From an uncultured Alphaproteobacteria bacterium (GTDB taxonomy: Bacteria; Pseudomonadota; Alphaproteobacteria; Rs-D84), in assembly GCA_949156565.1 (NCBI GenBank), contig CASCZI010000001.1, positions 118,856 through 182,855 of the forward strand: a stretch of DNA of 64,000 nucleotides, given 5' to 3'. Shown here one piece after another: positions 3,534 to 51,712 of the stretch. A program made the translations under genes and the position numbers. The notes under the pieces were generated by a model. The model had not been told where the DNA came from. It saw only the letters and a list, made by a program, of their open reading frames with translations, and did no database searches. How positions within the stretch are numbered: the first letter of the stretch is position 1; each line of letters begins with the position of its first letter.

Positions 3534-3989
3534 TTATTTATACGTACAAGATTGGGTTATACTGAACCGGCCGGTTATATCATAATAGATTCCCGTCCCC
3601 AGATAACATTGCGATTTCGACGTCGCACCGACGGGGGATGTTCCCTTGGCCAATATCTTGCGGGATGCATCAATATATATATCTGTGGCCTTGGGACAGG
3701 GTAGACATACACCGACCTGATCATAATATCCCGCCCCGCATAGACTACAGTTACAGTCACCATTTTCTGTGTTTGTGATATTGACCCCATATCCCAGGTT
3801 ACATATACATTGATAACATGGGTATGTCATACATGCCATGCATGTGCCATTGGGATTGGTTATTGTCTGACGTATTCCATTAACAATCGGGAAATCTGTT
3901 CGGGTGCATTCGCTGCTACCTACACTGACCCCCATGGCATTCGCGTTCAAAAACACAATCGCCGCCACCAAGATAAATAATCTAAACAT
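3534..3989 (-). CDS. Secreted cysteine-rich protein with ephrin-receptor-like (GCC2_GCC3-type) CxxGYY...CxxCP repeat
   Basis: Internal ATG gives a signal peptide (MFRLFILVAAIVFLNANAMG). The mature part has about 17 Cys, including CSLCGAGYYDQVGVCLPCP. Confidence 0.5.
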   Translation of the reverse strand: MFRLFILVAAIVFLNANAMGVSVGSSECTRTDFPIVNGIRQTITNPNGTCMACMTYPCYQCICNLGYGVNITNTENGDCNCSLCGAGYYDQVGVCLPCPKATDIYIDASRKILAKGTSPVGATSKSQCYLGTGIYYDITGRFSITQSCTYK

Positions 3990-4011
3990 GACATCCCCCA
4001 ATCGAATAAAA

Positions 4012-4041
4012 ACCGCCGCGAAATGGGCGGTCGGGATGTTA
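4012..4041 (-). terminator. Hairpin plus T-run immediately upstream of the cysteine-rich gene start
   Basis: On the minus strand: CCGCC-GCGAAATG-GGCGG followed by TTTTTA. Confidence 0.35.
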
Positions 4042-4307
4042 GAAAAATCATATTCATGAAATGACCGCGCAGATTTTAGGATAAACCCCTGTGGTATAAC
4101 TGCGCCAACCCGACCCGTGTCGGGATGGTTGTAGACACAACCGAAATTGGATACCCGTCGTGCACACGTGCACAACGTCATGAATATGGGTTTTCTAAGC
4201 CCCGAATCCCCGTTCCCACGGAAATTCGTTTGTTATTTTATCACGCCAATCATGAAAAGACAAGTGGGCATTCACGCCCCATTACCAAATCATGACCGGC
4301 GACAAGT

Positions 4308-8443: not shown

Positions 8444-9514
8444 TTATACCAATGCGGCGGTAATTTGATCCTGCATCTGGAATGTGCCCAAGACGACCCA
8501 CGCAATGATCGCCGATACCAGTAAAATTCCCATTGAATTCATGACATTGGATATAGATTCCATTCGACGAATAGATTCGGCCAAATAATCATTGGCCACA
8601 CGTGACAAATTACGATCAAATTCGTTCATTTCTGCATAAATCGCCAAATCACCAATAATTTCGTCATCGGGGAAATCGCGCCCTGTTTTGATCAATGCCG
8701 CCCCCAGATTGTCCCCCCCCACGATATAGCGCAGGGCGGCATTTAAAATACTGCGTAAATAAGGGTTTGAATTGTCGGCCAACATACGCATGGCATCAAC
8801 CACCGTCACGCCCGATGCCACCATCGCCGATAATGACATCAACCATCCGACCGATGCCTGAATCTTATAAATGCGCCATGGGGGAAATTTATCAAATTTT
8901 GCCCGCAAACGCCCGGCCCAGTTCGGCAAACTAACCGTGATGACAATAACACCAATTACAAACGATGCCGTTAAAACAAACCAATAACGTGACGCCATAT
9001 CCGCCAACCAGATCAGTGATGCCGCCGATCCGCGCCATACGATACCGGGCCCCGCCGCATCGGCCAATGGTGGCACCAGATATAATCCCACCATAATAAT
9101 GATTCCCACCGTCAATGCCAACAAGAACAACGGATATGTAATGGCCGACATCATGGCCCGCTTGATCCGGCCCGTGCCATCAACAACACGTCCAACGTTT
9201 TCCAACGCCACCACCAAATTAGACAAATTTCCCGATGTCACCAATAATGTTTCATCCATCGGAACCCATCCACGTGTCGCCTCAGAAAAGGTCATCCCCC
9301 GTTCCAGGTTTTTTTGCCATTCGCGCATCACAATGGCAAATGGTTCATCCGGTTTGGCCCCCCCCTTAGATTCGATCATTTCAATTCGCCCCAGTGCATC
9401 CATCAACGTAAAATCATTCCGCAACAGGGACGCCAATTTTCGGCATACAGACATGCGGCGTCCGGTATTTAACCGAAAGGATAATTTCGCATAGAGTCGT
9501 TCAAGGCGTTCCAT
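8444..9514 (-). CDS. GspF/PilC-like (T2SS F-family) inner-membrane platform protein; PilR(R64)/BfpE/TcpE-like
   Basis: About 356-aa polytopic membrane protein with several hydrophobic segments. Immediately downstream of the GspE-like ATPase. Start moved to the internal ATG (MERLERLY) one nt after the ATPase stop. Confidence 0.55.
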   Translation of the reverse strand: MERLERLYAKLSFRLNTGRRMSVCRKLASLLRNDFTLMDALGRIEMIESKGGAKPDEPFAIVMREWQKNLERGMTFSEATRGWVPMDETLLVTSGNLSNLVVALENVGRVVDGTGRIKRAMMSAITYPLFLLALTVGIIIMVGLYLVPPLADAAGPGIVWRGSAASLIWLADMASRYWFVLTASFVIGVIVITVSLPNWAGRLRAKFDKFPPWRIYKIQASVGWLMSLSAMVASGVTVVDAMRMLADNSNPYLRSILNAALRYIVGGDNLGAALIKTGRDFPDDEIIGDLAIYAEMNEFDRNLSRVANDYLAESIRRMESISNVMNSMGILLVSAIIAWVVLGTFQMQDQITAALV

Positions 9515-9515
9515 C

Positions 9516-11141
9516 TTAATATACCCCCGGTTGATCCAACAATCCGACCCAACGTTCCAATTCATCCACCCCAATAATTCCCGACAGCATTAATTCCATC
9601 GCCGATTCTTTAAGGGTTCGTCCCCCCAGATTTTCCAGCCAATACCGCGCCGCGCCATCGGTATTTCCCGACAAGGCCATTTGTAAAAATTCAGAATTGG
9701 GAATGATAATTTCACCCGCCTTGATCCGCCCCAGCGTACCCGTCCCCCGGCATTCTTCGCACCCGGCCCCACGGATATACACCTGGCGCAGGCCCAATTC
9801 CCCAAACGCATCTTTGACCCGCCGATATGCCGGATGATTGGGATGATCGATCAAACGTTCCCGGCAATACGGACATAATTTCTTAAACAGACGCATCGAT
9901 ACCAAACCGCGCATCATTGTTTCTTCTTTTAGTTTGAACCCCTCTACCCCCATGTCCAGCAATCGCGTCAATGCCGCCATGGCAGAATTGGCGTGTAATG
10001 TGGTCCACACATTGTGTCCTGATAATGCCCCCTTAACCGTTAATTGCGCGGCCGACAACGTACGGATTTCCCCCACCATTAACGTATCGGGATCACTTCG
10101 CAGGGCGGCGGCCAGTGCCTCTGTAAACTTTTCTTCGCGCATTTCTTCGTTGGATGCATTGACAACCGGCATTTGATGCGCGCCAAAAATCTTTTGTTCC
10201 GCGGGATCTTCGACAGTAATCAGATTAATTTCATAATGTCGTTCTTTCAGCATTAACGACATGTTGCGAACCAACGTTGTGGATTTTCCCGAACTGGTTG
10301 GGCCGGCAACCACCACCAATCCCGTCGGAAAAGAGCGCAAACGCATCAACAGCTTTTGTTCATATTCGCCAAATTCTTGGGCGGTTTTGATCCCTTCGCT
10401 TGGGTTATCATAAAGCAGGCGCATCACCACATAACGTGATCCGAATGCGATGGGATTAAATTGCATACGTATCCCCAAAATCCCCACCGGCAGGTATAAA
10501 TCCTTGGTCCCACGCAGGGGTGTTCCCCCATCTTTCTGGGCCGATTGGTATTCATTTTGGGCATAATTCGAATTCGAAATATCGGCCGATGCAAATGCCG
10601 CCCGAACAAATGATTCCCCCCATTGTGAATTATATTCCAAGACGGGTTGCATACTGCCATCAATGCGGAAATAAATGGTGGTTTGATCGGCCACTTCTAT
10701 ATGAATATCCGATACTTTCTGGGCGGCGGCCTTGGCAATGATATCTACGAAATCTTTTTGCATTTGGTTGTCATAATCGCCACGGGCCGATCCATCACCC
10801 ATATGTTCCCGATAAATTTTATAAATGGCCGCAACCAAACCCAAATCGGCATAAAATGGTTCGCGCATGGGTCGATCTTGGGCGTGTAATAAATCCAAAA
10901 ACGCCAAGACCCGTCCATCATACCGATGGGTACGGGAAATGATAATTTGCCCCCCCGAAAAATACGCAATTAATCCCTGGGCATCGGGGGGTAATGCCAA
11001 CGCCCCGCCCGCCGCCGTCATCAATCGGTTATTATCCCCCAATAAAAAGTCGGCAATATCACGGTTTGATCCGGCCGCCACGGCGGGGGGAACCGATAAA
11101 TTTGATGTATCCTGCAATGATTTATTTTTATCCTGGGCCAT
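9516..11141 (-). CDS. GspE/PilB-family secretion/type IV pilus assembly ATPase
   Basis: Walker A GPTSSGKST. Asp box and His box present. Tetracysteine CPYC...CEEC. 541 aa with an N-terminal extension. Confidence 0.85.
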   Translation of the reverse strand: MAQDKNKSLQDTSNLSVPPAVAAGSNRDIADFLLGDNNRLMTAAGGALALPPDAQGLIAYFSGGQIIISRTHRYDGRVLAFLDLLHAQDRPMREPFYADLGLVAAIYKIYREHMGDGSARGDYDNQMQKDFVDIIAKAAAQKVSDIHIEVADQTTIYFRIDGSMQPVLEYNSQWGESFVRAAFASADISNSNYAQNEYQSAQKDGGTPLRGTKDLYLPVGILGIRMQFNPIAFGSRYVVMRLLYDNPSEGIKTAQEFGEYEQKLLMRLRSFPTGLVVVAGPTSSGKSTTLVRNMSLMLKERHYEINLITVEDPAEQKIFGAHQMPVVNASNEEMREEKFTEALAAALRSDPDTLMVGEIRTLSAAQLTVKGALSGHNVWTTLHANSAMAALTRLLDMGVEGFKLKEETMMRGLVSMRLFKKLCPYCRERLIDHPNHPAYRRVKDAFGELGLRQVYIRGAGCEECRGTGTLGRIKAGEIIIPNSEFLQMALSGNTDGAARYWLENLGGRTLKESAMELMLSGIIGVDELERWVGLLDQPGVY

Positions 11142-11145
11142 GGGT

Positions 11146-11883
11146 TTAATTTGCGCCCCCGATGTTTAAATGCTGTTGATTGCCATCGCGTTCAAATACA
11201 ACCCCATCATCAAGAGATATGGCCCGCACCGTATATCCATCCAATGTTTTTCCCACAGAAATACGCCGCTGTTGCCCGTTATTTAAATCTTCGATTGTGG
11301 CGGCCAATTGGTTGCCGGCCCCAATGACATTTACCAAACGCCACCGCGTGGCAATGGAATCAATGGCATCAGAATCATCGTTTTGGGCCACAGATGTCGT
11401 GACCGGCATTGGGGCCGGTGCATTTGCCATGGCCGATACTTCGCGGGCCAGACGTTCTTTTTCCGCACCTAAACGGGCGGCTTCGGCCTCTAACTTGGCT
11501 TTTTGAACCTCGAATTCTTGTTGCTGTTGTTCGGCACGGCCGGACAAAGTGTCTAATTCCATTTGTAATTTAATTTTTTCTGCCGCCAGGCGATTTAATT
11601 CCAAATCCAATTGGGCCCGTTCTTTTTCCAATTGCATGACCACTTTTTCTTGTTCAAGTGTGGTGATTTGATCGAACAACGACCCATCCACGTCATAGGA
11701 TGCAATGGCGTCGGCCGCAACTTGTTCCATGATATCATCTTCGGTTGTGACCATATCTGGGACGGAATCAACATCGATGGTTTCAACCATATCAATGTCG
11801 ACATCCGCCATGGCCGGTATGACCGGTAAAAACATTGCCATACACACCATCACCCACATCAGATTACGGATTTTATTTCGCAT
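11146..11883 (-). CDS. Periplasmic coiled-coil protein, PilP/GspC-like candidate
   Basis: N-terminal signal/TM segment, an acidic stretch, a long coiled coil (LEQEKVVMQLEKERAQLDLELNRL...), and a C-terminal beta-rich domain. Confidence 0.35.
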   Translation of the reverse strand: MRNKIRNLMWVMVCMAMFLPVIPAMADVDIDMVETIDVDSVPDMVTTEDDIMEQVAADAIASYDVDGSLFDQITTLEQEKVVMQLEKERAQLDLELNRLAAEKIKLQMELDTLSGRAEQQQQEFEVQKAKLEAEAARLGAEKERLAREVSAMANAPAPMPVTTSVAQNDDSDAIDSIATRWRLVNVIGAGNQLAATIEDLNNGQQRRISVGKTLDGYTVRAISLDDGVVFERDGNQQHLNIGGAN

Positions 11884-13174
11884 AGATTATCACCTCATAG
11901 TTCCAGGTTCTGTTGCCGGCATTCCAAACGCATCGCGTCATATAGACACCGGAAAATTCATCAAAGATACGCATAAACGCCATGGGCGTCAATTTTGATG
12001 ATGCCGCAATTTCAACAACCGATAAATGCGCGGTGTCGACCCCATTACTTAACGTATCGATTACAATGTTGGTATCGACCGGGGTTGCGATCTGTTGAAA
12101 GGCGGTGGTTACATCACGCACAATGGTATCGGCATCGCGTTCATCCAATGATGCGCCGGTCCCCAATTGGGGTAACCGCGCCCGCACCGATATCGCCGAA
12201 TCCGAATTTTCAACCACATACGCCCCGGGCATTAAATCACCCGCCACCGCATAAAATTCACCCAATGTGCCAAACGTGCGCGTGAACATGACCGATGCGT
12301 ATTCTTCGCCACATTCAACCGATGTCTGGGTCCATCCCAAAACCGGTTGCATTAAAAATCCCATCGCGTTAAAGCATACCTGGGCCCGGGCCATGGGATC
12401 GGGTAAATGATCATACGGCATAACCAATGGTGGTGGGGGCGTTGGTTTTTGAATATCAAATTGAACATCTAATTCTTGGTTTTTTTGTTCAATCTGACGC
12501 TTGTACTCGGCGGCCAGTTCGGGATTGATCGTCGAAACCTGGGGACGGGGGGATACCATTTCCGCAATCGGCACCCGAAAAAAGTAAAGCAATACATAAA
12601 TAAATCCCCCAATCAGCGCCGCCGACAAAATATTGGCGCGCACACGACTGATCATATGCAAAATGCCCCGATTGCGACCGGCCATAATATCGTCAATACG
12701 ACGTTCCACCGCGCGTGGCATGGCCCATGATTCTGGGGCAAAGAATGCACCCCAATCAGGAATCTGGGCCAATTCAACATAACGATCGCGCGCCACAGCT
12801 TCGTCATTAAATAATTTATCTTCTAAAATAATGCCGTTACGAACCGCCACCAGGTAATAGCCGCCCGTCACCCGAAACACCGCCAAAAATGATGAAAATT
12901 CCCCGAATGCATCCACAACACCGGCCGCGGCCGATGCCATGCCGGCGCGGATCCCCCCCTGATGTGGGGCCAATCCAATCATTGAACGATATTCGGTATA
13001 AAGGGTATATTTCTTGTCAATACCACGTGCCAATTGACGCGCATAATTGCGTGGGGTATATCCAACACCCATCGGCTGCCACAGCAGGCCAACGGCGTAT
13101 TTGCGACGACCAATTGAAATATACTGATATGTCACACGGCATCTCTCTCTGATGTTAAATGAATTATAACACAT
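11873..13174 (-). CDS. Bitopic assembly protein, PilO(R64)/BfpC/GspL-like candidate
   Basis: About 430 aa with a single central TM helix (ILSAALIGGFIYVLLYFF). Position and size match pilO in the R64 pilO-P-Q-R order. Start uncertain: the ORF-track start is TTG. Confidence 0.35.
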   Translation of the reverse strand: MCYNSFNIRERCRVTYQYISIGRRKYAVGLLWQPMGVGYTPRNYARQLARGIDKKYTLYTEYRSMIGLAPHQGGIRAGMASAAAGVVDAFGEFSSFLAVFRVTGGYYLVAVRNGIILEDKLFNDEAVARDRYVELAQIPDWGAFFAPESWAMPRAVERRIDDIMAGRNRGILHMISRVRANILSAALIGGFIYVLLYFFRVPIAEMVSPRPQVSTINPELAAEYKRQIEQKNQELDVQFDIQKPTPPPPLVMPYDHLPDPMARAQVCFNAMGFLMQPVLGWTQTSVECGEEYASVMFTRTFGTLGEFYAVAGDLMPGAYVVENSDSAISVRARLPQLGTGASLDERDADTIVRDVTTAFQQIATPVDTNIVIDTLSNGVDTAHLSVVEIAASSKLTPMAFMRIFDEFSGVYMTRCVWNAGNRTWNYEVIIYAK

Positions 13175-13313
13175 TTTGATCGTGAAACGCAAACACAGAA
13201 TATTGTCCCCATCGATTAAAACGTAAATTTAAAACAGGTGGGCCATTGATGCCTGATCTTTGGGAAATCAAGGATTTATAAAAATTCAGGAATCCGATGG
13301 ATTCCTGAGATAA

Positions 13314-13811
13314 TTATTGATGACATGCCGACGGGTTACCGTACATGTCCCGGCATCCGGGGGCGGGGGTTGTGGGTGTGCCATATTGAACCGGAATCAA
13401 CACCGGATATGTCCCCGCCCCATAGGGTTGATATTGATATGCGTTAACCGACATCGACGCGTCGCGCGCCGTTTGAATCCGACGGGGATTGGGACAATTG
13501 TAAACATTTGCCGCCAAAACAAATGACCGTTCGGGCCCAAAGACAACCCATTCATTGGGACGGGTCCGTTGACTGGTAATCAAATAGGCGTTGCCAGGTC
13601 GGGCCTGATCTGCGATACGATTTTCCAGATACCGACGTGCATCTTCGGCATCATAGACGGAAACATCTGCCTCTAACTTATATAAAAACGTACAATCGGC
13701 CGGTTCTTCGTCTAATTGGACCAAATACTCACTGCCATTCTGATTTTTGATGTATCCGCCACATGACGTCAAAACCAAACACAACATGACGGGGTATAAA
13801 TATTTTCTCAT
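13314..13811 (-). CDS. Lipoprotein (lipobox LTSC)
   Basis: Signal peptide MRKYLYPVMLCLVLTSCGG with lipobox Cys. Immediately downstream of lpxC. Confidence 0.55.
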   Translation of the reverse strand: MRKYLYPVMLCLVLTSCGGYIKNQNGSEYLVQLDEEPADCTFLYKLEADVSVYDAEDARRYLENRIADQARPGNAYLITSQRTRPNEWVVFGPERSFVLAANVYNCPNPRRIQTARDASMSVNAYQYQPYGAGTYPVLIPVQYGTPTTPAPGCRDMYGNPSACHQ

Positions 13812-19385: not shown

Positions 19386-20978
19386 ATGCAGATCAAAAAT
19401 CTATCTTTATCATTTGGAACGACGGTTATTTATGACAATGCCGAATTTAACCTGGGGGGGCGTGATAAATGTGGCATTGTTGGGGTAAATGGGGCGGGAA
19501 AATCCACGCTGTTGCGGGTTTTGATGGGGGACGTCATTCCCGATTCTGGCGATATTGATACAAATGGGGCAGATTTCGGTTATTTACCCCAAACAATCGA
19601 ATACACCCATTGTGATATGACAGTATGGGATTTCTTGATATCTGGCCGACCCATTGATATTTTGGAATCTGAATTGGCGGCGGCCTATGACCGGTTGGTG
19701 GATAATCCCGATGATGCCGCCATCGCGGCCGATATTTCGCGAATCCAAGAACGATTGGATCATTATGATGTCTATAATGCCGATAATACTTTGTTGACAT
19801 TAATTGATCAAATGCGAATTGATCCGGCATGGTTGAATATGCGTTTGCGCGATTTATCCGGCGGACAAAAATCACGGGTGGCGTTTGCGCGCCTGCTCTA
19901 TTCCATGCCGGGCGTTATGTTATTAGATGAACCAACAAATCATTTAGATCATGAAACCCGTGAATTTGTGACACAATATTTAAAAAAATACCGCGGTATG
20001 GTTATGATCATCAGTCACGATACCGTCTTTTTAAATGCGGTGGTTAACAAAATCTTATATATCGACAAGCTCACCCACAAAATAATGACATTTGATGGCG
20101 ATTACGATACCTATAAACTGAAAATGGCAGAATTGCGCCATAAGCGCGATGTTACCATTTCCGCCCAAGAACGTCAGATAACACATCTGAAAAATTTTGT
20201 ATCACACGCCACCAATGCCAGTCCCACAAACCACGCCTTGAAACGCGCAGGAAAAACACGCGCCAAACAATTGGCCAAGATTATGGCCACACGTATGGTA
20301 CGGGATATAGAATATAAAAAATTACAAATGGATTTATCCCCCCGGCGTGCGGGGGCCCGCGTTCCCATCACGGTTGATGATTTGTGGTTTCGGTATCCGG
20401 GAAAACAGTTAATATATCGTCAATTATCATTTTATATCAATGGGGGGGAACGTTTTTTAATTTCGGGGGGAAATGGTTCAGGGAAATCAACACTCGTTAA
20501 ACTTATCTTGGGACAATTAACGCCGTATAAGGGACAAATCACCATAAACCCAAAAACCGATATTGCCTATTATGCCCAAGAATTAGAAGATTTAGATCCC
20601 CATCAAACCGTTTTAGAAAGTGTTTCTGGCACCGACACGGATTATACCGATATGCAATTACGTGCGGTGTTGGGAAACTTTTTATTTTATGACACGGATG
20701 TATTTAAACAGGTATCAAGTCTGTCACCGGGGGAACGGGCCCGTTTGGCATTGTGTCGATTATTATTACGACGGGCAAATATGTTGGTGTTGGACGAACC
20801 AACCAATCATCTGGACCCAGATACGGTTGGCATTATCGCGGATAATTTTCATGATTTTTCCGGAACAATTATTTTAATCAGTCACCACAAAGATTTTATC
20901 CGACAAATTGGCATGACACGGGTATTGTATTTACCGTCGGGACGCATTGATTATTGGGACGAAAACGACGCGGATTAA
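19386..20978 (+). CDS. ABC-F family ATPase (EttA/Uup-like translation factor)
   Basis: Two ABC cassettes with Walker A (GVNGAGKST; GGNGSGKST) and signature motifs (LSGGQKSRV; LSPGERARL). No TM domain. Confidence 0.85.
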   Translation: MQIKNLSLSFGTTVIYDNAEFNLGGRDKCGIVGVNGAGKSTLLRVLMGDVIPDSGDIDTNGADFGYLPQTIEYTHCDMTVWDFLISGRPIDILESELAAAYDRLVDNPDDAAIAADISRIQERLDHYDVYNADNTLLTLIDQMRIDPAWLNMRLRDLSGGQKSRVAFARLLYSMPGVMLLDEPTNHLDHETREFVTQYLKKYRGMVMIISHDTVFLNAVVNKILYIDKLTHKIMTFDGDYDTYKLKMAELRHKRDVTISAQERQITHLKNFVSHATNASPTNHALKRAGKTRAKQLAKIMATRMVRDIEYKKLQMDLSPRRAGARVPITVDDLWFRYPGKQLIYRQLSFYINGGERFLISGGNGSGKSTLVKLILGQLTPYKGQITINPKTDIAYYAQELEDLDPHQTVLESVSGTDTDYTDMQLRAVLGNFLFYDTDVFKQVSSLSPGERARLALCRLLLRRANMLVLDEPTNHLDPDTVGIIADNFHDFSGTIILISHHKDFIRQIGMTRVLYLPSGRIDYWDENDAD

Positions 20979-21604
20979 TTATCCGCCATACACCGTTTTA
21001 ATCGGGTGCCGTCATCGTGGGCATCAATATCTTTGTTCTTGATTTCTTCGTTGGCACGTATGCGGCGACGCATTAAAATTAATTCTGGATGATCTTGTAA
21101 CCGTTTATTTAATTCATCCAATGCCGCATCAATATTTCCATTCAAAGGGACAAAGACGGGCATAACCGTTCGGGCCGCGTGATCAATGGCCGCCAAAATA
21201 TCGTCATGCATATCATCAATCACCGATAAATAGGCGCGAATATGTGAATCTTCGTGTGATAAAATGGCATCATAGGCGCATGTCCCCCGTGCATGCCGTG
21301 AATCAATTTGGACCAAAAAATCATTATACCCAATCGTTGCATCCACAGATTTTAACGCGACACAATACCCATCTTCGATCGGGGTCACATCACCCGTAAT
21401 GTCGTAATTATCAACCAACGTGGCCATTACATTTCCATGCAATAGATCCATCGGCTTTAACGGTTGAACCACCGATTTTTGCCATTGGGGGGCGGTCATG
21501 GTCACCCGAGGGGATATTTTATAGACCACACAATCATCCGCGCCATGGGCCGATATTATTATGCCCATTACCGCCCAAAACAAAAGAAACGAATACCGGA
21601 TCAC
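20975..21604 (-). CDS. Secreted protein with HExxH motif (putative small Zn-dependent peptidase, DUF922-like)
   Basis: Signal peptide. HEDSH motif. ATGA overlap with the virB4 stop implies co-transcription. Confidence 0.45.
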   Translation of the reverse strand: MIRYSFLLFWAVMGIIISAHGADDCVVYKISPRVTMTAPQWQKSVVQPLKPMDLLHGNVMATLVDNYDITGDVTPIEDGYCVALKSVDATIGYNDFLVQIDSRHARGTCAYDAILSHEDSHIRAYLSVIDDMHDDILAAIDHAARTVMPVFVPLNGNIDAALDELNKRLQDHPELILMRRRIRANEEIKNKDIDAHDDGTRLKRCMADN

Positions 21605-24012
21605 AGATCGCCTGCCCCTTGCTGTTTTAAATATTCGGCGACAAAGGCATTTCCATATTGTTTATACAATTCTTCGGCCAAAAGAACCGACGAACGTCCC
21701 GATTCAAATAAACGCAATAACGGACCCAATCCACCCAGTTCGGTATTCAAAATCACCGATTCCCCAGATACCGGCCGTGACAACAATACCGCACGTTTTA
21801 AATGGGGATAGGCACGACCCTGAATAAATGCCATTTCCAAAGGATTTAAATTCCAATGTTCATAATCACGGGCATCGGCCGCAGGATTGCGGAAAAACAA
21901 GATGGTTTGTGCCTGGCCACGGACAACATCACCGATACCCAATTTATCCAATACATTTGCCCGTTGAAATGCGACCATGTATGCCTGGCGGTTTTTACGC
22001 CCTTCTTGCAGACCCGTGATAAAATTATCCCGAAACATTTTATTTTCCAACATGGGTGCCGTTTCATCAATCATGATCAAAGACGGATTTCCCCCGGCCA
22101 CAGTTATGTTATTAATCCGATGCAAGATATATGAAATCACCGCCGGCGCCAAAATAGGGTCTTGTAATATTTCGGTAAAATCAAATGTGGTTAATCGCGC
22201 GCCCAGATCCAACGTATCTGATTCTTCGTTAAAGATATCACCATATTGCAATGGATCAACCCACTTTTTCAATGCCGGCCGCATGGGACCGGTTGCGGAA
22301 AAACAGCTTTGCCATAAATTTTTAAGCAATCGATCCCGCATATCCAGGTAATCGAAATTAACCGACACGGCCCGGGCAATTTCATCCGCCGACGCAGGAT
22401 CATCAACACCTGTTATAATTGAAAACCATCGACGTAAAAACGCGCGGTTGGCAACCGTATCGGACATTTTCAATGGATTCAGATGGGTTTGAAAACTGAT
22501 CCCATCGGTTTTATCCCGTCCCTGCATGGTGATGTATTTGCCCCCCACGGATAATGTAAAGATTTCTGCCCCTTTGTTGCGATCAAAAAAGAAGGCTTTT
22601 AATTTCTGATGACGCATGGCCTGGGCGATAAGGAATGAAAATAATGTCGTTTTTCCCCCACCCGTTGGCCCGATGGTTAATGTGTGACCGACCGCCGCCG
22701 GGGCATCGGATACATGAAATTGAAATTGATAGGGGGTACCCTGGGCCGTGGGGAATACAACCAATGGTCCCGGACCCCAATCCGAATTTTCAACACCTGT
22801 CGGTTGGGTTGACATCGGAATACTGATCGCGGCGGTGCGCGATAACATCTTAAAACTGCGTGGGAAAATATCAAATCCTGGGATTTGTGAAAACCATGAT
22901 ACTTTGGATGCAAAATCTTCGACAATGGGGGATACACCATATGCGGCACAAATCTTTTTAACATCATCAATACTTTTGCCCAATGCATCCCGTGTTGCCC
23001 CAAATACCAAGAACAAGGGATAATAACTAACCAGATTTTGTGTTCCCGATATATTTTCATCCATGGCCCCACGGGCGGCCGAAATTTGTTCTTCGGTCGT
23101 GTCATTGTTTTCATCGGCCGTGGCACGCCGTTGACGGATAACACTTTCCACGGCCGACGCCCCCAGGATATTAAATCCATTCATACAGATCATTTCTGTC
23201 TGTAATGTCGCCATTTCATCAAAAAATTCTTCGTCCAGAAAATCGGGTGATACCTTAAACGATACCAATGCCGCAAATGATTGTTCCCCACCACTGACAT
23301 ATTTTACCAACCCATCGTCGGTGAAGACTACATCATCAACCGTCACCAAATCTGCCATTTGATTATCACATTTTCGCGGGGATGGTTTCGTGATCGGGGA
23401 CAAAATGCGTCCAAAAAATTTCGCCATGTTGTCTGAACTATTATTTTCCAGAACACGGACCCCATACGGGGCCAACACAGATTCAATATAATTACCATAT
23501 TGGTTCAATTTATCCCGCGCACCGTTACCCGATACTGTTAAAACAATGTAATAATTGTTTAAAAAGATACGCAATCCCTGGCTGTGCCATTTGTCATATA
23601 TTTTTTGCAAAACCGGTTGATCAAATTCATAATCATTTTCTTGGACCGCGGCATTGCGAATGGTAAAAAACCGCAATGTGGCGTTGGGATCCCGAATTTG
23701 ATTAAACAAAGACGCCCGTAAATCCAGAAATTTTTCCCGGGTTTTATCGTCTTGCATGCTGGATTGGACACCATGAACGCGATAAACACGCACCAACGCC
23801 CCATTGGTCAATTCAATCGAATTATCGTCAAACACACGGCGAAATGGCAAATAATCCGCATATTTTTTATATCCAAATTTGGGAAATACCCACCGGGTTA
23901 ATACCGGGACATATGCCATCATCAACGCAAAAACCACAACCACCGCCATGGCCAACACCACCAGTGTGAGGGGAAATCCATTGCCTGCGAAATAATTAAA
24001 AATATCATTCAT
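21601..24012 (-). CDS. virB4: Type IV secretion system ATPase VirB4/TrbE family
   Basis: 803 aa. N-terminal TM segment. Walker A GPTGGGKTT. Walker B IMIDE. Confidence 0.85.
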   Translation of the reverse strand: MNDIFNYFAGNGFPLTLVVLAMAVVVVFALMMAYVPVLTRWVFPKFGYKKYADYLPFRRVFDDNSIELTNGALVRVYRVHGVQSSMQDDKTREKFLDLRASLFNQIRDPNATLRFFTIRNAAVQENDYEFDQPVLQKIYDKWHSQGLRIFLNNYYIVLTVSGNGARDKLNQYGNYIESVLAPYGVRVLENNSSDNMAKFFGRILSPITKPSPRKCDNQMADLVTVDDVVFTDDGLVKYVSGGEQSFAALVSFKVSPDFLDEEFFDEMATLQTEMICMNGFNILGASAVESVIRQRRATADENNDTTEEQISAARGAMDENISGTQNLVSYYPLFLVFGATRDALGKSIDDVKKICAAYGVSPIVEDFASKVSWFSQIPGFDIFPRSFKMLSRTAAISIPMSTQPTGVENSDWGPGPLVVFPTAQGTPYQFQFHVSDAPAAVGHTLTIGPTGGGKTTLFSFLIAQAMRHQKLKAFFFDRNKGAEIFTLSVGGKYITMQGRDKTDGISFQTHLNPLKMSDTVANRAFLRRWFSIITGVDDPASADEIARAVSVNFDYLDMRDRLLKNLWQSCFSATGPMRPALKKWVDPLQYGDIFNEESDTLDLGARLTTFDFTEILQDPILAPAVISYILHRINNITVAGGNPSLIMIDETAPMLENKMFRDNFITGLQEGRKNRQAYMVAFQRANVLDKLGIGDVVRGQAQTILFFRNPAADARDYEHWNLNPLEMAFIQGRAYPHLKRAVLLSRPVSGESVILNTELGGLGPLLRLFESGRSSVLLAEELYKQYGNAFVAEYLKQQGAGDL

Positions 24013-24014
24013 TG

Positions 24015-24311
24015 TTATGCCGCCAATCGTTTGGGTATTTGAAGTTTAAACAGTTTTATTTTTGCCGCAATAATCTGGCCCAGTTGGGGTTCCCGCTTGG
24101 CCACACCGGCCAAAATAAAATGCACCACACATACCGATCCCAGGAAAAACAGTGGCAACATTCCCATATCATCGCCGCCGGCCAAAACGCTGGTGATGAA
24201 AATGGCGACAAAAATCAAAAATTGAATGACAAAATTCATGACGGCCAGTGTATAGGGCACATAAAATATACGTGCCGGATTGGCCAATGCCTTCATAACT
24301 TGCTGTTTCAT
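24015..24311 (-). CDS. virB3: Type IV secretion system protein VirB3-like
   Basis: About 98-aa membrane protein immediately upstream of virB4. Internal ATG with a GGGAGA RBS. The ORF-track N-terminal extension was rejected. Confidence 0.55.
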   Translation of the reverse strand: MKQQVMKALANPARIFYVPYTLAVMNFVIQFLIFVAIFITSVLAGGDDMGMLPLFFLGSVCVVHFILAGVAKREPQLGQIIAAKIKLFKLQIPKRLAA

Positions 24312-24334: not shown

Positions 24335-24540
24335 AATGAATTATAACAATTTCAACATTTTTCAACAAGTATAAAAAAGATTTTCCCAAAAATGTTAAAA
24401 GCGTTGAAAACACCACCCAATATCCACCGGTAATTACCGACGATTGTTTTGAACAATTTTTTACAAACCCCGCGGTTTTCGCCAAATTTTTTGTTGAAAA
24501 CATTGTGGAAAAAATTTGAAAACGTTTTTCAACAAAACCA
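24335..24540. promoter_or_regulatory. Repeat-rich divergent control region between virB3 and rpmJ
   Basis: Multiple TTGAAAAC / GTTTTCAA motifs. Tandem TTCAACA x2. Inverted repeat TTGTTGAAAAC...GTTTTTCAACAA. Small palindrome ATTGTTttgAACAAT. Confidence 0.4.
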
Positions 24541-24787: not shown

Positions 24788-24826
24788 AGGCGCGGTTGAT
24801 TTATATCACCGCGTTTTTTATGGATT
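24788..24826. terminator. Bidirectional terminator (rpmJ / SufD-like gene)
   Basis: Stem CGCGGT(T)GAT / ATCACCGCG, then T6. Confidence 0.55.
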
Positions 24827-25505
24827 AAAACAAAGGATTTGAATTTTCAAATGCCTCGCGCAGGGTATCATTGATTTCCGCCGTGGACAATCCGGCCGTA
24901 CGTAAAAATTGAATTTGCGGGGGTGTGGCCCGATAAATGGATGCATTATGATCGGCCGATATGGGGGCCGCCCCGATACGTTGGGTTGGACGAAATTCGA
25001 TATGGGCGGTTTTATCCGCCATGGCAGAAAACGAAATATCCGAAATCGACCGTGGGGCATTTTCGTTAATTTGGGCCACCCCAGACAATATCGAACGCGT
25101 TTTTGCGTGGGCGATTAATTTGGTATGGACCAAAATTTCCGTATCCGGGGCATCGTGTTGGGCCGATATGTTAAGATGGAATTGATCATTATTTTGAATA
25201 ATAATACCACCACGACATTGTGAATTTTCCCCGGCATTTTTTATAAAAATATTTAAAAAAGCCGGTTTTTTATTTTTTATTTTTGCCGTCAAAAAGACAC
25301 GTTCATGGGGGAATTTTATATCCAGGTTTAATTTATTTTCCCCCGAAATTTCACCCACGTAAATCACATGAACCGGTAAAACCGTGTGATGGTCGATTGT
25401 GGTATCGGGCAATGTGGATAAATCGGGACAAAACACTCCATCACGGTAAACAATTGTTTCCGCCGGAAATGTTTTTATATTGAATTCGTTCCATAGGTAT
25501 GACAT
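24825..25505 (-). CDS. Short SufB/SufD-family protein
   Basis: C-terminal QIQFLRTAGLSTAEINDTLREAF resembles the SufB/SufD C-terminus. No sufBC is adjacent. Confidence 0.4.
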   Translation of the reverse strand: MSYLWNEFNIKTFPAETIVYRDGVFCPDLSTLPDTTIDHHTVLPVHVIYVGEISGENKLNLDIKFPHERVFLTAKIKNKKPAFLNIFIKNAGENSQCRGGIIIQNNDQFHLNISAQHDAPDTEILVHTKLIAHAKTRSILSGVAQINENAPRSISDISFSAMADKTAHIEFRPTQRIGAAPISADHNASIYRATPPQIQFLRTAGLSTAEINDTLREAFENSNPLF

Positions 25506-37937: not shown

Positions 37938-38050
37938 TCTTTTTATATTCTTTACGGGTGCAGTTTAACCATTAAAAGGGGGACGCGCAATAAAAACTTG
38001 ATTTTTTAAATTAATCTGTCAAAATACCCCCGTTTGTTAAGATACCCAAA

Positions 38051-38069
38051 ATGGCAATGGCATTGCCAT
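38051..38069 (+). promoter_or_regulatory. Palindrome ATGGCAATGGCATTGCCAT in the rpmI leader
   Basis: A 9/9 inverted repeat sits about 25 nt upstream of the rpmI RBS (AAGAGGTG). Confidence 0.3.
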
Positions 38070-38094
38070 CCGGGTCCAGAACAAGAGGTGTAAA

Positions 38095-38298
38095 ATGCCA
38101 AAACTGAAAACAAAATCGTACCTGAAAAAGCGTGCGTCCATGACGGCAACGGGGAAAATCCGCGTTGCGCGTAATGCCCACAAAAAACTGTTGCGGAAAA
38201 AGTCAAAGCGTGCAAACAACGCCGGATCAAAGCCGCAGTATTTGAACGAAAACATGGTGTCCCAGGCAAAAATCCTGGCCCCGTATGGGTTGAAATAA
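38095..38298 (+). CDS. rpmI: 50S ribosomal protein L35
   Basis: MPKLKTKS...RKKSKR, typical of L35. Confidence 0.85.
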   Translation: MPKLKTKSYLKKRASMTATGKIRVARNAHKKLLRKKSKRANNAGSKPQYLNENMVSQAKILAPYGLK

Positions 38299-38315
38299 TT
38301 TTGGGGGTATAAAAA

Positions 38316-38684
38316 ATGGCAAGAGTAAAACGCGGAACAACCGTTAAACAAAAACATAACAAAATTCTGGCGCGGGCCAAAGGATTTTTGGGCCGTCATC
38401 ATTCAACGTATCGTGCGGCACGTGAAAAATCCGAAAAGGCGGGTCAATACGCCTATCGCGATCGGCGCACGAAAAAGCGTGATTTCCGGTCCCTGTGGAT
38501 TGTGCGTATCAACGCCGCGGTGCGCGCCAACGGATTAACCTATAGCCAGTTTATGAACGGATTGAAAAAGGCCGGGGTTGAATTGGATCGCAAAGTGTTG
38601 GCCGAAATGGCCTATGCGGGGGATGAAAATTTCGCTGCATTGATTGACACGGCAAAACGATTTATGACCGCCGAATCTAAATAA
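38316..38684 (+). CDS. rplT: 50S ribosomal protein L20
   Basis: MARVKRG...AYRDRR, typical of L20. Confidence 0.9.
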
Positions 38685-38766
38685 GCCATTGGCGGCATGG
38701 TTTTGTTTTGTTATAATAAAGACCGTCGATTGACGGTCTTTTCTTTTTAATTTTGGGATAACAACG

Positions 38767-50908: not shown

Positions 50909-51643
50909 CTATTCCATGCGATATGTTGTGTTACCGATGCGAACATGGATTCCCGTCCCAGATTCGGTGGTTAAATTGCCGTAACAGATGCCGCCTGGTA
51001 TTTTAACAACAATTGCCGGGGATGTATGGCGCGATGCATATAATGGGGCCGTGACGGTGCCCATATGAATTTGCGTCACGCCCGCGGCGCACAAGGGTTG
51101 ACATGTATCCCCGACGCGCCCGTATCCATCGTCACATTCCCATGGGCAATTTGATTCTATTGCACCCACGCTGGACGGGGTTGAATATGATGTATAATGG
51201 GCATGCGCGGGGCCGTTTGTGCATGGCGCACATTGATCGTACCACGGTCCCCAGAGATAATGACTGGCGTAATAACCGGGACGACAATCAATATATTGAT
51301 GATATTGAATGCCACCCGGCCCTTCGATACAGGGACGTTCATATTGATACCATGTCCGCGTGTCATCAGAATAGTCCCAGTTACAAATACAATGTTTGGC
51401 CGCTGTGGCGTGGGGGGAATCCCATTCCCCGTCCACAGATGTATAAACCCGGGCCAAATGTGAATCATTATCCAGATCCCAACAGGAATAGCGTATATCA
51501 TCCCCGGGACAATAATGTTTTGCGCCGCAATCCGTGCATTTGTTATTTGCCAAATAATATCCCGGATCACACGTTGCGGCCAACCCTGGTAAAACCGGCA
51601 AAACCAAAACAGCCCCCAAAAACCCGACAGTTTTTTTAGGCAT
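50909..51643 (-). CDS. Secreted cysteine-rich protein with two ephrin-receptor-like CxPGYY...CxxC repeats
   Basis: Signal peptide MPKKTVGFLGAVLVLPVLPGLAA. CDPGYYLANNKCTDCGAKHYCPG and CRPGYYASHY...CAPCTNG. About 22 Cys. Possible paralogue of 3534..3989. Confidence 0.5.
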   Translation of the reverse strand: MPKKTVGFLGAVLVLPVLPGLAATCDPGYYLANNKCTDCGAKHYCPGDDIRYSCWDLDNDSHLARVYTSVDGEWDSPHATAAKHCICNWDYSDDTRTWYQYERPCIEGPGGIQYHQYIDCRPGYYASHYLWGPWYDQCAPCTNGPAHAHYTSYSTPSSVGAIESNCPWECDDGYGRVGDTCQPLCAAGVTQIHMGTVTAPLYASRHTSPAIVVKIPGGICYGNLTTESGTGIHVRIGNTTYRME

Positions 51644-51712
51644 AGTCCCAATATTAAAAATCCCGGATTTCTGCGACAAATTTTCCCCCCAACTATGCCT
51701 AAAAAAACTGTC
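51626..51712. repeat. Perfect 21-bp inverted repeat (GACAGTTTTTTTAGGCATAGT) bracketing a 45-bp spacer
   Basis: Arms at 51626-51646 and 51692-51712. Each arm contains an ATG plus six identical codons (MPKKTV). A third partial copy lies at 51721-51732. Confidence 0.7.

Follow-up and report, generated by a model that had tools for sequence, protein, structure and literature searches.

In the Rickettsiales, the genes of the rvh type IV secretion system (T4SS), which is of the VirB/D4 type, are chromosomal and dispersed in islets (PMC2653234). Here we describe an islet, virB3-virB4-X, in a 64,000-nucleotide (nt) stretch of DNA (hereafter the window) from an uncultured alphaproteobacterium belonging to Candidatus Enterousia, in which virB3 and virB4 are followed by a gene, here termed X, for a small exported protein with an HExxH motif. 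As in rvh, T4SS islets that appear to be vertically inherited lie among the housekeeping genes of a reduced-genome alphaproteobacterium; both systems include a virB3-virB4 islet, and neither contains a recognizable virB5. There are also differences. In rvh, five virB6 paralogues come after virB4, and virD4 is grouped with virB8-11 (PMC2653234), whereas here virB4 is followed by the putative zincin X and the virD4 of Enterousia is solitary. The lineage is Rs-D84 (Enterousia), not Rickettsiales, and the closest VirB4 and VirD4 proteins, according to a search of a plasmid collection, belong to conjugation clusters of alphaproteobacterial plasmids. Enterousia is placed in the uncultured order Rs-D84, has genomes of approximately 0.75-1.0 Mb without a tricarboxylic acid cycle and respiration, and has been described genomically in a text from which the word 'secretion' is absent (PMC12306168). 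Rs-D84/Enterousia bacteria are common uncultured inhabitants of the gut with small genomes.

X itself invites comparison with several groups of proteins. It resembles VirB1-type transglycosylases in its proposed role, that of an exported, operon-encoded enzyme opening the peptidoglycan locally for assembly; in the X family, some genes are coupled with mltA, and one member is fused to a peptidoglycan-binding domain. Its predicted fold and chemistry, both zincin-like, differ entirely from those of VirB1, as does its gene position, which is after virB4 and not at the front of the operon. DUF922 (PF06037) is a predicted family of secreted zincins (PMC3650047). Like X, its members are small proteins secreted by bacteria, contain HExxH, and are predicted to resemble zincins. 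A weak local match exists between the two, but X has a different signature, namely four cysteines, a long beta-hairpin, and, towards the C terminus, the motif N..ID...C.

With somewhat better than even confidence, we favour the interpretation that virB3-virB4-X is an islet of a domesticated, dispersed VirB/D4-type T4SS and that X is a periplasmic zincin accessory, probably a hydrolase of peptidoglycan or of another part of the envelope. In the proposed mechanism, the three genes would constitute a chromosomal, vertically inherited, MPF-T-like T4SS islet of the reduced-genome Candidatus Enterousia (order Rs-D84). X would be exported by Sec and form two disulfides in the periplasm; zinc would be bound by H117, H121, and a third ligand, for which D194 is a candidate, and E118 would act as the catalytic base. 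X would then cleave peptidoglycan peptides or another envelope substrate locally, allowing the machine nucleated by VirB3 and VirB4 to be built through the wall, and would thereby fill the role that VirB1-type lytic transglycosylases have in canonical systems.

The virB3-virB4-X triad and its conservation

All three genes are on the minus strand of the window: virB3 at 24015..24311 (98 amino acids, aa), virB4 at 21601..24012 (803 aa), and X at 20975..21604 (209 aa). They are adjacent and closely spaced or overlapping. Only 2 nt separate the stop codon of virB3 from the ATG of virB4, and virB4 overlaps X by 4 nt at the junction CTG TGA / GTG ATC. An earlier, sequence-only reading of the window had noted this overlap as ATGA. 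The overlap exists, but its sequence is GTGA because X starts with GTG.

The virB4 product is a T4SS ATPase matching TIGR00929 (E = 6.5e-113; 378.5 bits, with the curated cut-off of 643.1 not reached) and PF03135 (CagE_TrbE_VirB; 42.9 bits, cut-off 21, E = 7.1e-11), and its residues 199-733 align to the solved TrwK (7o41) with an E value of 1.5e-37. The Walker A motif GPTGGGKT (aa 448; nt 22648-22671) and the Walker B motif LIMIDE (aa 645; nt 22063-22080) are both intact, and an N-terminal transmembrane segment is present. The protein falls under all NCBIfam curated cut-offs, and its homologues carry the NCBI name 'hypothetical protein'. Judged from these matches, virB4 represents a divergent subfamily of VirB4/CagE/TrbE, still a member of the family. 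For virB3, the match to PF05101 was weak (E = 2.6e-4; 21.7 bits, just short of the cut-off of 23.9) and equally weak in its homologues. The assignment is backed by the size and position of the product, a small inner-membrane protein of 98 aa, by its two hydrophobic segments, by the 2-nt spacing, and by the same match in relatives. An extended virB3 open reading frame (ORF) of 184 aa was rejected: The in-frame upstream extension is interrupted by stop codons in relatives and is thus not conserved, which sets the length of virB3 at 98 aa.

As previously read from the ORFs of the window, VirB3 and VirB4 are the only T4SS components encoded locally, and nothing T4SS-like follows. Profile and phmmer searches across the 64 kb found no members of the VirB6, VirB8-11, or VirD4 families, and a Pfam search of the 25 least obvious window proteins returned no T4SS family. 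The gene content of the window is that of an ordinary chromosome, including gyrB, lpxC, lpxK, dnaG, topA, rodA, mrdA, and mreBCD, as well as pheST, mutS, parAB, recF, a dTDP-rhamnose operon, and three tRNAs.

Relatives of X were present in the genomes of 190 species, scanned at one genome per species and filed as uncultured Alphaproteobacteria, 'Rickettsiales bacterium', or Candidatus Enterousia; the gut hosts of X-bearing bacteria are human, chicken, horse, sheep, goat, and yak. VirB4 was encoded upstream of X on the same strand in 84/84 related loci. The two were direct neighbours in 78 of these 84, and an X paralogue intervened in the remaining 6, accompanied by a further gene in one. Directly upstream of virB4, virB3 was found in every locus whose contig extends that far (78/78). 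By contrast with this constancy, the outer flanks vary: In some genomes, for example, sufBD and rpmJ border one side and DUF374 and lpxK the opposite one, and in others the flanks are an ABC-F gene and rpmJ together with ychF. Because the flanks differ while virB3, virB4, and X stay together, the triad moves as a unit.

Among the Enterousia loci, identity to the window proteins was 69-93% for VirB4, 51-68% for X, and 43-79% for VirB3. Pairwise ratios of nonsynonymous to synonymous substitutions (dN/dS) were approximately 0.10 for VirB4, 0.19 for X, and 0.22 for VirB3, all of them rough values given that dS is saturated at about 1.5. By these pairwise estimates, virB3, virB4, and X are all shown to evolve under purifying selection. 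The triad was also present in more distant bacteria. In L088/L089 (26% G+C content, GC), VirB4 was 58% and X 25% identical, and in the marine contig L100 (30% GC), VirB4 was 45% identical and X was recognized by the Enterousia profile only (E approximately 5e-12). The possibility raised earlier, that the coupling of virB4 and X might be incidental, was not borne out: They were linked in all relatives, even at about 25% identity of X. The linkage of virB3, virB4, and X is not due to chance.

The intervening paralogue, X2 (212 aa, with the motif HEQDH), lies in tandem between virB4 and X in six species (L034, 9352-9990; L073, 9345-9983; also L032, L047, L059, and L082) and is about 35% identical to X over the core. 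In L073, an additional gene of 345 aa is inserted after virB4. Approximately 3 kb upstream of the triad in L003/L004 (1794-4433), we observed a phage-type integrase, a Bro-N domain gene, and small genes, which suggest an integrated element beside the lipocalin and ABC-F genes. One contig filed as 'Bacteroides fragilis' (L068, CAVGNU010000002.1) contains an Enterousia-type L36/virB3-virB4-X locus with a VirB4 that is 76% identical; its label looks like a binning or labelling error.

The exported protein X and its family

X begins with the hydrophobic leader MIRYSFLLFWAVMGIIISAHG/ADDC, a signal peptide of approximately 21 residues, and its HEDSH motif occupies residues 117-121 (nt 21242-21256), in agreement with the 209-aa signal-peptide protein recognized in the sequence-only reading. 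Its cysteines are at positions 25, 81, 109, and 205. The deposited gene call (P0001) comprises only 150 aa: The start codon GTG, which overlaps the virB4 stop, was evidently missed, and the call therefore lacks the signal peptide as well as the first strands. The 209-aa form is backed by about 550 homologues of approximately 205 aa. In an alignment of 27 Enterousia-type sequences (A1), H117, E118, D119, H121, C25, C81, C109, and C205 were invariant. Across 40 sequences of the wider family, at 14-31% identity (A2), the invariant residues were G57, C109, H117, E118, D194, and C205, with C25, C81, and H121 nearly so; a further family alignment (A4) had H117, E118, and H121 all invariant. Apart from the motif, D194 is the sole acidic residue that is invariant throughout the family, which makes it a candidate third zinc ligand. 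By exhaustive profile search, the family comprises 519 cluster representatives at E <= 1e-3.

Two independent models of X were confident, with predicted local distance difference test (pLDDT) scores of 93.4 and 92.3. In the AlphaFold2 model (pLDDT 93.4), a leader helix and two short pairs of strands precede a long beta-hairpin (58-99); the HExxH helix (109-131) comes next, and four further helices form a bundle after it. In this model, the HExxH helix comes after the strands 58-99, as it does in zincins. For both models, the best structural matches were the minigluzincins proabylysin and selecase, IrrE/PprI, and the protease domain of CapP. The models of X appear to share with these minimal zincins a core made of a beta-sheet, the active-site helix bearing HExxH, and a supporting helix.

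Other searches were negative. A Foldseek comparison of the X model with the PDB gave nothing meaningful, the best hits being tyrosine phosphatases (E = 0.07) with a template modelling (TM) score of about 0.1, and sequence profiles of X against PDB chains returned coiled-coil noise only. Neither Pfam nor NCBIfam assigned a family to X and 40 diverse family members, and tblastn of X against the plasmid collection produced no match. Membership of DUF922, raised in the sequence-only reading, was rejected: The match of X to PF06037 covers 29 residues around the HExxH helix at E = 0.12 and 12.8 bits, well short of the Pfam cut-off of 27, and DUF922 was detected at E <= 0.01 in one of the 40 family members (E = 0.005) and in none of the other 39. 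Two further assignments were discarded. X is not a VirB1-type lytic transglycosylase, having no SLT or lysozyme-like domain, and it is not a VirB5/TraC member, as no sequence or fold similarity was detected. That X is not a canonical T4SS component had been anticipated, and indeed it matches no VirB family and is absent from the closest complete VirB clusters. Taking the models together with these searches, X is most likely an exported zincin-like protein of an undescribed family.

Outside the triad, the genomic context of the family points to the cell wall. The product of mltA is membrane-bound lytic murein transglycosylase A. In other low-GC Alphaproteobacteria, X-family genes start at the mltA stop codon (P0186 in L091/L092 and P0188 in L098), in the order SecB-Tim44-MltA-X. 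A further family member, P0233, consists of an X domain fused to Sel1 repeats and PG_binding_1 (54.3 bits, cut-off 23). Because of these MltA and peptidoglycan-binding links, the Sec leader, and the conserved cysteines, we infer that X is a periplasmic peptidoglycan-directed peptidase, the most economical reading. The suggestion in the sequence-only reading that X might be a periplasmic accessory or a peptidoglycan-remodelling enzyme thus gains support from the apparently zincin-like fold, the MltA coupling, and the PG_binding_1 fusion.

The virB3-virB4-X operon provides a functional handle on this uncharacterized exported zincin-like family of approximately 500 cluster representatives, which occurs in two alternating contexts, downstream of mltA or downstream of virB4. 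Should X indeed be a murein peptidase recruited to a T4SS, a peptidase would be doing the job usually assigned to VirB1-type transglycosylases. X could also serve as a marker of cryptic, scattered T4SSs in reduced genomes.

A probable dispersed T4SS and alternative roles of X

The closest VirB4 and VirD4 were sought in an annotated collection made up of plasmids; in the homology search with VirB4 itself, close relatives filled the results and left distant ones out of view. The closest annotated VirB4 proteins (32% identity) are encoded in complete conjugative clusters of Erythrobacter and Microvirga plasmids. In these clusters, VirB2-B3-B4 come first, followed by a VirB5-like and a VirB6-like gene and then by B8-B9-B10-B11 and D4; a MobA relaxase is encoded nearby. 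No homologue of X was found in them.

VirD4 of the Erythrobacter cluster identified virD4 in two Enterousia loci (E approximately 1e-95, 31% identity). At E <= 1e-20, 1354 relatives of this virD4 were found, and the best 120 of the 1354 are 79-100% identical. The gene (732-753 aa; L008, 15655-17853; L093, 10001-12247; L095, 10001-12262) is chromosomal and always alone among housekeeping genes, divergent from rsmE-rluB. The presence of a solitary, conserved virD4 elsewhere in Enterousia chromosomes means that the T4SS genes are scattered as in rvh, as the sequence-only reading had proposed, although in the lineage Rs-D84. Moreover, virB4 and virD4 match the same Erythrobacter cluster, and at least two T4SS islets are therefore derived from the same kind of ancestral cluster. 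VirB4, VirB3, and VirD4 are strongly constrained, which suggests a working type IV system and contact-dependent exchange with cells or the host. In L093/L094, virD4 is followed by two lipoprotein genes, one of 422 aa without a family and one of 250 aa that is LpoB-like.

The remaining components were sought by phmmer with ten VirB/D4 proteins and MobA of the closest plasmid cluster, against the window and the ORFs of the 84 loci. VirB4, VirD4, and a PilB-like ATPase were the only proteins matched, and the same plasmid proteins had no matches among the unannotated genes around virD4 in L093. Of the remaining vir/rvh genes, virD4 was thus located in Enterousia relatives, whereas VirB6 and VirB8-11 were not located in the sequences searched.

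Several observations weigh against the interpretation that X is a hydrolytic accessory of a dispersed T4SS. Searches of the window and of neighbourhoods of approximately 20 kb at 95 loci detected no VirB2, VirB6, or VirB8-11. Co-transcription of virB3, virB4, and X as one unit is deduced from their spacing. The metal site of X and its third ligand D194 are candidates derived from residue conservation, and hydrolytic activity is a prediction for all members of the family. The MltA and peptidoglycan-binding links belong to distant paralogues or orthologues and not to the X of Enterousia. Lastly, some X-family genes (P0171, P0241, and one in Microvirga L096) have neither a T4SS nor an MltA neighbour, and so the family is not dedicated to T4SSs.

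A different role for X is conceivable, although we consider it unlikely, as a structural replacement of VirB5 that is periplasmic, pilus-tip, or adhesin-like and employs HExxH for metal-dependent folding or binding instead of catalysis. In the closest clusters, which lack X, the VirB5-like gene comes after virB4, and X therefore occupies exactly the virB5 position. It shares with VirB5/TraC minor pilins a signal peptide and a similar size (approximately 205 aa, compared with 250-270 aa), and its C-terminal half is helical. No VirB5 was detected by phmmer in any searched locus, and the rate at which X evolves exceeds that of VirB4, a trait of exposed subunits. Unlike X, VirB5 proteins are not known to have an HExxH motif.

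With the same low probability, X might be a processing protease for a T4SS component or an envelope protein, acting in pilin maturation or in the turnover of assembly intermediates. Such a function would be compatible with the apparent zincin-like core and the invariant HExxH, with the close coupling of X to the first-assembling inner-membrane subunits, and with the fact that its nearest structural neighbours, CapP, IrrE, and minigluzincins, cleave proteins. However, no VirB2 pilin gene was found nearby, and the sole contextual hints in the wider family, MltA coupling and the PG_binding_1 fusion, relate to murein.

It appears improbable that VirB3, VirB4, and X, together with the solitary VirD4, are a self-contained envelope or cell-contact module that needs no VirB6-10 core. 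In such a module, the VirB4 ATPase anchored by VirB3 would work with the periplasmic zincin and might cooperate with a type IV pilus-like system. If so, this would be a previously unrecognized minimal type IV secretion derivative in several low-GC, small-genome alphaproteobacterial lineages.

Still more doubtful is the view that VirB3-VirB4-X, with VirD4, is a remnant co-opted for another envelope process, for example with nearby pilus-like genes. The genomes are extremely reduced, VirB6 and VirB8-11 went undetected as stated above, and the triad has a PilO/GspE/GspF-type cluster as a neighbour, at a distance of 8-12 kb in the window and of 4-9 kb in L001. On the other hand, the T4SS search covered neighbourhoods of limited size, other subunits could easily escape detection because VirB4 itself is so divergent, and the strong conservation of VirB4 and VirD4 fits a working T4SS. 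Least probable of all, X might be a secreted effector or toxin directed at neighbouring cells or the host and merely co-expressed with T4SS genes, as a small, exported, enzyme-like protein beside secretion genes that evolves fairly fast and has a tandem paralogue in six species; but most T4SS substrates are recruited from the cytoplasm via VirD4, whereas the classical Sec signal peptide and four invariant cysteines of X suggest periplasmic folding, and X, a core gene that 190 species conserve vertically in single copy (dN/dS 0.19), has relatives coupled to the housekeeping gene mltA.

A putative control region and neighbouring genes

Upstream of virB3 lies a conserved promoter- or operator-like element of 30 nt, CTTGTTGAAAAATGTTGAAATTGTTATAAT (24340..24369, minus strand). 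It contains the direct repeat TGTTGAAA, and its 3' end is a consensus -10 hexamer, TATAAT, 28 nt before the virB3 ATG; the ribosome-binding site, GGGAG, is 9 nt upstream of the start. The window contains one exact match to the element and 100 shuffles contain none. With 0-2 mismatches, it was present in 75 of the 78 Enterousia loci holding the region, despite the saturation of synonymous sites. It could be the promoter of the operon combined with a possible operator. Tested as a possible regulon marker, the element occurred in one copy per locus, and it was absent upstream of virD4.

At the other end of the operon, a palindromic hairpin, GCGGATAATTAATCCGC (20970..20986, minus strand), extends across both the stop codon of X and that of the ABC-F gene convergent with it (19386-20978, plus strand). 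It has a terminator-like match, although such matches around it are no more numerous than in shuffles. It is possible that this hairpin is a bidirectional terminator, the indication from its sequence being weak.

Divergent from virB3, rpmJ encodes the 44-aa ribosomal protein L36 (24630-24764, plus strand; PF00444, E = 2.3e-5). Where Enterousia loci extend this far, a conserved rpmJ (84-95% identity) nearly always flanks the triad upstream, at a distance of approximately 310 nt. At 24825-25505 (minus strand) is a gene for a 226-aa protein that is limited to the C-terminal core domain of SufBD (PF01458, E = 2.6e-10) and scores well under the equivalog cut-offs for SufB and SufD, possibly a truncated iron-sulphur assembly component of a reduced genome.

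The pilus-like genes of the window are located at 8444-13811 (minus strand) and resemble type IV pilus or type II secretion system genes. They encode a 165-aa lipoprotein, a PilO-like protein (PF06864, E = 3e-9), and a coiled-coil protein, together with a GspE/PilB ATPase of 541 aa that has CxxC pairs in its C-terminal part and a membrane protein resembling GspF/PilC. The family PF06864 derives from the R64 thin pilus. Neither a secretin nor a pilin was observed in this cluster; L093 contains, at 824-2161, a gene for a large pilin-like protein with a G/MLIELL leader.

The 829-nt interval between mreC and pheS (37938-38766) holds overlapping, implausible ORFs only and had no Rfam match at gathering thresholds. 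Two genes on the minus strand of the window (3534-4181 and 50909-51679) encode Cys-rich exported proteins with repeated C..C..GYY..C..C motifs and no Pfam family. A 1011-aa Cys-rich protein resembling them is encoded near virD4 in L093 (4207-7242), and these Cys-rich exported proteins may be surface or adhesion proteins.

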